From Escherichia coli (GTDB taxonomy: Bacteria > Pseudomonadota > Gammaproteobacteria > Enterobacterales > Enterobacteriaceae), in NCBI RefSeq assembly GCF_016026235.1, contig NZ_CP065613.1: 64,000 nucleotides of DNA; one strand, given 5' to 3'. A program made the position numbers. Shown here piece by piece: positions 54,001-57,000 of the stretch (positions are counted from its first letter, which is position 1; each line of letters starts with the position of its first letter).

Positions 54001-57000
54001 TCTTCACCGAGGGCTTTCATGTCGAAGGTGTCGTAATTACTGAGATCCCACTGGTTTTGCTGGGCGAAAAAGACCAGTGCGCGACGAATTTGCCCGTTAG
54101 GTAAGTTCTGGTAACCACAATCGTTCTTCAGAAAGACAAAAACTGCCGTTAAATCGGCCATATCTTCGGCTTCAGACTCGCTGAGCGCGTAACTGTTTGC
54201 GCAGACGGCCATCAGGCTGCCGAATAACACTGTTCTGAAAAACGTCTTCATTGCTTCTACCAGGGGCTTAAAGAAGATAAACGTTAGCACACTGCGAGCG
54301 AGGCGACGACCATTATTGTCGATTAAATTGTGTCTGCGGCTTGACCTTCCCGTAAGGGGAAGGACTATGCTCAACGTTTGATTTTGTTTCGCCTGCTTAA
54401 GAATAAGGAAATAACTATGCAACGTCGTGATTTCTTAAAATATTCCGTCGCGCTGGGTGTGGCTTCAGCCTTGCCGCTGTGGAGCCGCGCAGTCTTTGCG
54501 GCGGAACGCCCAACGTTACCGATCCCTGATTTGCTCACGACCGATGCCCGTAATCGCATTCAGTTAACTATTGGCGCAGGTCAGTCTACCTTTGGCGAGA
54601 AAACTGCAACTACCTGGGGCTATAACGGCAATCTGCTGGGGCCGGCGGTGAAATTACAGCGCGGCAAAGCGGTAACGGTTGATATCTATAACCAACTGGC
54701 GGAAGAGACGACGTTGCACTGGCACGGGCTGGAAGTACCGGGTGACGTCGACGGCGGCCCGCAGGGAATTATTCCGCCAGGCGGCAAACGTACGGTGACG
54801 TTGAACGTTGATCAACCTGCCGCTACCTGCTGGTTCCATCCACATCAACATGGCAAGACCGGGCGACAGGTGGCGATGGGGTTGGCTGGGCTGGTGGTAA
54901 TTGAAGATGACGAGATCCTGAAATTAATGCTGCCAAAACAGTGGGGTATCGATGATGTTCCGGTGATTGTTCAGGATAAAAAATTTAACGCTGATGGGCA
55001 GATTGATTATCAACTGGATGTGATGACCGCCGCCGTGGGCTGGTTTGGCGATACGCTGCTGACCAACGGTGCAATCTACCCACAACACGCTGCCCCGCGT
55101 GGCTGGCTGCGCCTGCGTTTGCTCAATGGCTGTAACGCCCGCTCGCTCAATTTCGCCACCAGCGACAATCGCCCGCTGTATGTGATTGCCAGCGACGGTG
55201 GTCTGCTACCTGAACCGGTGAAGGTGAGCGAGCTGCCGGTGCTGATGGGCGAGCGTTTTGAAGTGCTGGTGGAGGTTAACGACAACAAACCCTTTGACCT
55301 GGTGACGCTACCGGTCAGCCAGATGGGAATGGCGATTGCGCCTTTTGATAAGCCGCATCCGGTAATGCGGATTCAGCCGATTGCTATTAGTGCCTCCGGT
55401 GCTTTGCCAGACACATTAAGTAGCCTGCCTGCGTTACCTTCGCTGGAAGGGCTGACGGTACGTAAGCTGCAACTTTCTATGGACCCGATGCTCGATATGA
55501 TGGGGATGCAGATGCTGATGGAGAAATATGGCGATCAGGCGATGGCCGGGATGGATCATAGCCAGATGATGGGCCATATGGGGCACGGCAATATGAATCA
55601 TATGAACCATGGCGGGAAGTTCGATTTCCACCATGCCAATAAAATCAACGGTCAGGCGTTTGATATGAATAAGCCGATGTTTGCGGCGGCGAAAGGGCAG
55701 TACGAACGTTGGGTTATCTCTGGCGTGGGCGACATGATGCTGCATCCGTTCCATATTCACGGCACGCAGTTCCGTATCTTGTCAGAAAATGGCAAACCGC
55801 CAGCGGCTCATCGCGCGGGCTGGAAAGATACCGTTAAGATAGAAGGTAATGTCAGCGAAGTGCTGGTGAAGTTTAATCACGATGCACCGAAAGAACATGC
55901 TTATATGGCGCACTGCCATCTGCTGGAGCATGAAGATACGGGGATGATGTTAGGGTTTACGGTATAAAAAGACCGTATTTGGAAATATGCCCGGATCTCT
56001 CCGGGCATTAAACTGATGACAAACGCAAATCTGCCTGATGCGCTACGCTTATCAGGCCTACGCTACCTGTGCAATCCATTGATTTTGCACAATTTTGTAG
56101 GCTGGATAAGGCGTTCACGCCGCATCCGGCATGAACAACGCGCACGTTGTCAGCAATCTGAGCAAGTCTTACTTCACATCATCCGGCAGGGCATAAGCCA
56201 CAATATAGTCGCCCATCTTCGTACCAAATGAACCGTGACCGCCTGCGGAGATCACCACATACTGCTTACCATTCACTTCATAGGTCATTGGCGTCGCCTG
56301 ACCACCCGCTGGTAAACGACCCTGCCACAGTTTTTCACCGTTGCTCATGTTGTAAGCGCGCAGGTAGTTATCTGCCGTAGCGGCGATAAACAGCACGTTA
56401 CCCGCCGTGGAGATTGGCCCGCCCAGCATCGGCATACCCATATTGAACGGCACCGGTACAGGCATCGGGAACGGCATACTGTCCTGCGGCGTACCAATAC
56501 GTTTCTTCCACACCACTTCATTAGTTTTCAGATCCAGCGCCGAGATATAACCCCATGCTGGCTGTTTACATGGCAGACCAAATGGTGAGAGGAACGGGTT
56601 GAGCGTGACACCATACGGTACACCGTACTGTGGCTGAATGCCGGATTCCGTACCCGTGCCTTTGGCATCTTTCGGCTGTTCCATCGGGTTACCAGGACCG
56701 CGTGGGATCAGTTTCGAAACAAACGGCAGTGCCATTGGGTTGGCAATCGCCACTTCACGATTTGGATCAACGGAAATCCCGCCCCATTCGAACATCCCCA
56801 GGTTACCCGGGAAGACCAGCGTACCCTGTTCAGATGGCGGGGTGAAAATGCCTTCATAGCGCATCTGGTGGAACATCACGCGGCACACCAGCTGGTCAAA
56901 CATGGTGGCTCCCCACATATCCGCACCGCTCAAATCTTTCGTCGGACGGAAGCTCAGTTCAGAAAACGGTTGAGTAGGGGTAACGTAATCGCCTTTGGCA

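Follow-up and report, generated by a model that had tools for sequence, protein, structure and literature searches.

Here we describe the promoter of the multicopper oxidase gene cueO in a window of 64,000 nucleotides of Escherichia coli DNA (RefSeq assembly GCF_016026235.1, contig NZ_CP065613.1), by which we mean the whole stretch that was analysed. The site is almost certainly a CueR-dependent promoter of the MerR type, and this reading, which rests on the anatomy of the promoter, its identity with K-12, its likeness to copA, its conservation footprint and the literature, is contradicted by no observation and leaves us with very little doubt. PcueO is already known and well described as a CueR target, and nothing in the site is new. 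CueR has been described as the activator of copA and cueO, both with promoters carrying a 19-bp spacer (PMC1526738, PMC8169799, PMC9909328). The same description of cueO is found in a further study, in which a PcueO-lacZ fusion is inducible by copper and the deletion of PcopA and PcueO abolishes the FRET signal between CueR and DNA in vivo (PMC9396075). Live-cell tracking work treats PcueO as a CueR operator (PMC4507017), and the published core of the CueR site is CCTTCC-N7-GGAAGG (PMC8169799). A full-text search of the literature for the dyad string matched no paper, and no relevant ChIP-exo evidence for CueR at cueO was found.

Read directly from the plus strand of the window, the -35 hexamer TTGACC (54341-54346) and the -10 hexamer TATGCT (54366-54371) are separated by the spacer TTCCCGTAAGGGGAAGGAC (54347-54365), whose 19 bp exceed the sigma-70 optimum of 17 bp by 2 bp. 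This is what an initial annotation of the sequence had said of the two hexamers and the distance between them. The -35 element varies little or not at all among 68 distinct orthologous promoters and is the same in K-12 copA. An inverted repeat, CCTTCCC-GTAAG-GGGAAGG, spans most of this region: its arms (54345-54351 and 54357-54363) are 100% complementary and stand 5 nt apart, and its centre, A54354, is the eighth base of the spacer. The dyad had been placed in the spacer by the same annotation. It is indeed real, but it is not wholly contained there, since it extends over 54345-54363, offset by 2 bp upstream, so that it shares two bases with the 3′ end of the -35 hexamer and stops 2 bp short of the -10. 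The CueR core CCTTCC-N7-GGAAGG is matched exactly at these positions; allowing one mismatch at most, the 64-kb window has a single occurrence of it, where shuffled sequences lead one to expect 0.07. No other non-trivial inverted repeat is present in the 165-bp intergenic region between yacC and cueO. The assignment of this dyad, which carries no strand of its own, to a CueR operator draws on the register of copA, on 68 orthologous sites and on the published core (PMC8169799).

Further downstream, the start of transcription is predicted at 54377-54380 (plus strand) from the usual distance of 6-8 nt between the -10 and +1, and a Shine-Dalgarno sequence, AAGGA (54405-54409, plus strand), which belongs to an (A/T)AAGGA block conserved in 44 aligned species, lies 7 nt before the ATG of cueO. 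With +1 set at 54378, which makes the discriminator 6 nt long, the centre of the dyad (54354) would fall at -24, and it is at -24 that the central kink of the CueR activation complex has been located (PMC9909328). A scan for sigma-70 promoters with spacers of 16-18 bp called none between 53800 and 54600, as is expected of a site with a non-canonical 19-bp spacing, and this result does not argue against a promoter. The coding sequence of cueO (54417-55967, plus strand), recognized by a profile match, starts 46 bp downstream of the -10 and opens with a twin-arginine signal (MQRRDFLK...AVFA); the ORF matches the NCBIfam equivalog NF008205 over its full length, with 983 bits against a cut-off of 525. 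On the other side stands the divergent neighbour yacC (53904-54251, minus strand), whose start codon is 94 bp from the dyad. The pair has been named the yacC-yacK divergon, yacK being the former name of cueO (PMC1526738).

All 165 bp of the yacC-cueO intergenic region are identical in K-12, including the hexamers, the spacer, the dyad and the Shine-Dalgarno sequence. Of 5,426 complete E. coli genomes, 5,418 contain the region, and the annotation of yacC and cueO on its two sides holds throughout the matches listed. The gene of the regulator, cueR, is about 377 kb away in K-12 and outside the window, and we infer its presence in this genome from its near-universal occurrence in E. coli (5,424 of the 5,426 complete genomes). 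In turn, the cueO coding sequence of K-12 differs from that of the window at approximately 48 sites (3.1%), and K-12 is devoid of a prophage in yacH, whereas the window carries one 6.8 kb upstream of the promoter. The stretch 54252-55967 thus joins an intergenic region equal to that of K-12 with a coding sequence whose 3.1% divergence is high for E. coli, which could reflect either a regulatory region under strong constraint or a mosaic produced by recombination.

Among the MerR-type promoters of K-12, PcopA, which is the CueR target of the crystal and cryo-EM structures, has the same -35 (TTGACC), a spacer that is also of 19 bp (TTCCCCTTGCTGGAAGGTT) and the same core CCTTCC-N7-GGAAGG, its dyad likewise beginning at the fifth base of the -35 and being centred on the eighth base of the spacer. 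The two CueR promoters differ in the -10 hexamer, TAACCT in copA and TATGCT in cueO, and in the seven central bases of the dyad, CCTTGCT in copA and CGTAAGG in cueO; pairing is found in copA at ±10 (A/T) but not at ±3, whereas in cueO it is found at ±3 (C/G) but not at ±10. The ZntR promoter PzntA (-35 TTGACT, spacer of 20 bp, -10 TATCCT, dyad ACTCTGGAGTCGACTCCAGAGT) and the SoxR promoter PsoxS (-35 TTTACC, spacer of 19 bp, -10 TATACT, dyad CCTCAAGTTAACTTGAGG) resemble cueO in having sigma-70 hexamers with an over-long spacer and a dyad in the middle, but their half-sites are unrelated to those of cueO, and the spacer of PzntA is of a different length. Promoters of the PzntA/PsoxS type are activated through distortion of the DNA (PMC9909328). 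For the MerR family this mechanism has been worked out by structural studies. Since the half-sites and the register of cueO are those of copA, while zntA and soxS share only the architecture, the cueO site is specifically of the CueR type. The arrangement expected for a MerR-family regulator, and for CueR in particular, which had been proposed from the sequence at the outset, is therefore supported by the identity of cueO, the identity with K-12, the register of copA and the literature; the comparison with K-12 that had been suggested as its check finds the dyad present and identical in MG1655.

It is very improbable, in our opinion, that the site is instead the operator of another regulator of the MerR family, either ZntR, SoxR or a GolS-like paralogue. 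Operators of Salmonella GolS were reportedly found by Perez Audero et al. in 2010 to be close in sequence to those of CueR; to our knowledge, however, GolS is absent from E. coli. Moreover, although a spacer of 19-20 bp with a central dyad is common to all MerR-type promoters (PMC1526738) and would as such fit any of these proteins, the half-sites of ZntR (with its 20-bp spacer) and of SoxR in K-12 are unrelated, CCTTCC/GGAAGG is common to cueO and copA, and cueO has been assigned to CueR (PMC8169799, PMC9396075).

The CueR-type site also presents a clear footprint across species, which was followed in the cueO loci of 80 species of Enterobacteriaceae obtained by a protein-anchored search (74-98% protein identity). 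With one mismatch at most, TTGACC-N19-TA(T/A)GCT is found within 300 bp upstream of the cueO start codon in 79 of the 80 species, and the core dyad, with up to two mismatches, in 72 of them, against 11 matches in 236 kb of control sequence drawn from these loci. Over 68 distinct sequences, the positions upstream of -15, counted from the dyad centre, carry about 0.1-0.7 bits of information and those between -14 and +19 about 2 bits; conservation is as strong in the spacer as in the hexamers, and the flanks are not conserved. In the right arm, positions +4, +6, +8 and +9 are invariant across all 68 promoters, and this conservation is not due to the hexamers, because these positions lie in the spacer; that of the left arm could come in part from the promoter alone, since the arm overlaps the -35. 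Dyad symmetry is kept in 97-100% of the sequences at ±4, ±6, ±8 and ±9, in 84% at ±10, in 72% at ±5 and in 26% at ±7, and three sequences have changed ±5 in both arms (C/G to G/C) with the dyad remaining intact (CCTTgCC...GGcAGGG).

The cueO/cuiD promoters of Salmonella, Citrobacter, Enterobacter, Klebsiella and other genera carry, in the same register, TTGACC-N19-TA(T/A)GCT and CCTTCC...GGA(G/A)GG. Most genera have G at +7 (right arm GGAGGG) and T at +10, while Escherichia has A at both positions; as the pair at ±7 is T/G in most other genera, the consensus site is less perfect than that of E. coli, with its perfect 7-bp arms. The exact 31-mer is found in E. coli, and E. albertii, E. whittamii, Escherichia sp. 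E1V33 and all the other genera sampled differ from it by at least one base. Intestinirhabdus alba is the only one of the 80 species without the motif in the 300 bp scanned upstream of cueO, 130 bp of its locus having been inspected (L078, 1370-1500), and its cueO may be placed in a different context or be subject to a different regulation.

Such data bear on the idea that the palindrome is a chance feature of a weak constitutive promoter and has no regulatory role. A perfect inverted repeat of 7 bp is certainly short, and the part of it that overlaps the -35 would be conserved anyway. Nevertheless, the core pattern is expected only 0.07 times per window, copA has an identical core in an identical register, 79 of 80 species retain the 19-bp spacing, and the right arm is invariant at four spacer positions in 68 promoters whose flanks are not conserved, so that a coincidence is effectively refuted by conservation and we grant it practically no probability. 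The idea that the GC-rich hairpin works as a structure of RNA or DNA (such as an intrinsic terminator or an attenuator) and not as a protein operator is just as negligible. Although the 7-bp stem folds as single-stranded DNA at -7.4 kcal/mol (z-score of -2.4 against shuffles), no T-run follows it on either strand and a terminator scan calls none at the site, it lies between the -35 and the -10, upstream of the predicted start and hence outside the cueO mRNA, and both yacC and cueO are transcribed away from it. Moreover, other genera have T/G at ±7 and unpaired inner positions, which means that it is the sequence and not the pairing that is conserved.

A 91-bp query of the CueR-dependent promoter finds an identical sequence in 4,873 of 5,431 E. 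coli records. In the four variants inspected, three with a single-base change and strain E69, the changes fall before the -35, within the 5′ UTR or at inner positions outside the core (-2 and -3), with the core and the hexamers untouched. Besides the chromosome, cueO is found at 10 plasmid places in E. coli. In one of the plasmids, pTBE6_2_blaCTX-M-55 (L085, NZ_CP154402, 2893-3083), an end of ISVsa5, of the IS4 family, falls inside the -10, at about position 54368 of the window; the -35 and the CueR dyad are replaced there by IS sequence, and this plasmid copy of cueO is thus uncoupled from CueR control.

If the cueO promoter behaves as the CueR/copA literature describes, a CueR homodimer would occupy the dyad in its apo and Cu(I) forms alike. 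The dimer has been described as sitting on the DNA face opposite RNA polymerase (PMC9909328). As long as the 19-bp spacer is straight, or bent as in the apo form, the -35 and the -10 would be too distant from each other and out of phase for sigma-70, and the promoter would therefore be off. Upon binding of Cu(I), Ag(I) or Au(I), the dimer would clamp the half-sites, kinking and undertwisting the centre of the dyad; with the Cu(I) form of CueR this centre is kinked by about 85-90 degrees at -24 and undertwisted (PMC9909328), and the two hexamers are thereby brought to a spacing and a phase usable by sigma-70 (PMC8169799, PMC9909328). The spacer of cueO, shortened and re-phased in this manner, would allow RNA polymerase to engage both hexamers with the help of a contact with the non-conserved region of sigma, an assistance that has been documented (PMC8169799, PMC9909328). 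The transcript codes for pre-CueO, a protein that is exported through the Tat pathway and, in the periplasm, oxidises Cu(I) to Cu(II).

The intergenic region contains a second conserved block, AACGTTAGCA(C/T)AC, at 54280-54292, which is near-invariant in 44 aligned enterobacterial species. On the minus strand it reads TGTGCTAACGT, resembles an extended -10 and lies about 30 nt upstream of the ATG of yacC, the gene of a pilotin-like lipoprotein. The block is possibly the yacC promoter; a simple promoter scan made no call at 54280-54292. The nearby sequences GCGACGA and TTTATT (including 54303-54316) are likewise conserved. An effect of CueR on yacC is conceivable, because the two genes share a divergent region of only 165 bp and this block may be the promoter of yacC. 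Even so, it seems improbable to us that the distortion imposed by CueR also modulates yacC, or that the T/A pair of Escherichia at ±7 alters the set-point between repression and activation, and there is no pointer to either. If the latter were true, the perfection of ±7 specific to Escherichia would entail a different repression/activation set-point.

As regards the genomic context, only positions 47526-64000 of the window are collinear with K-12, at 98.6% identity. The rest is largely taken up by a lambdoid prophage of about 46.7 kb (805-47525) inserted in yacH, which is split into the ORFs 103-789 and 47507-48595, both on the minus strand. The prophage displays attP arms like those of lambda, and an 11-bp core, TTATCAGTAAG, is directly repeated (794-804 and 47529-47539). 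Among the prophage features are an Int fragment, Ant antirepressors, an IS3-family transposase, an O protein, TerL and a tail fibre; in its left half, the best-matching phage records account for only 32-35% of the sequence (91-95% identity). The integrase ORF (877-1569, minus strand) encodes 230 aa that align with the C-terminal part of integrase profiles, and the integrase may therefore be truncated. A transposase of the IS3/IS629 type (7993-8811, minus strand) is found in the early region, and the prophage may be defective. At the end of the prophage lies ipaH (45283-47046, minus strand; 587 aa), whose counterpart in FDAARGOS_943 is annotated as the T3SS effector E3 ubiquitin ligase IpaHa; such a gene is a marker of Shigella/EIEC virulence, present here as cargo of the phage.

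FDAARGOS_943 is also the nearest genome, its host flank being 99.9% identical and the only record at or above 99%. Since the flank shares 98.6% identity with K-12 and 99.9% with FDAARGOS_943, and the adjacent prophage carries ipaH, the host probably belongs to a Shigella/EIEC-like lineage of E. coli and not to that of K-12. In FDAARGOS_943 the same phage end (Lom, tail fibre, ipaH) is located by ybhB-bioA, near the classical lambda attachment site, and not in yacH, and the right junction between prophage and yacH (46500-48500) was found in none of the 5,426 complete E. coli genomes. These observations suggest either a Shigella/EIEC-like source or a phage with a changed integration specificity.

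At the level of the family, the cross-species footprint illustrates that an operator placed inside a promoter spacer becomes visible as the conservation of spacer bases. For the organism, the promoter proves useful as the sanity check on the host that the initial annotation had seen in it, the exact 31-mer being found in E. coli and the other taxa sampled differing by at least one base. PcueO confirms an Escherichia/Shigella chromosomal origin for the right-hand 16.5 kb of the window, because E. coli alone among the 80 species sampled has this exact 31-mer, and it thereby anchors the assignment of a host to the prophage occupying the first 47.5 kb.
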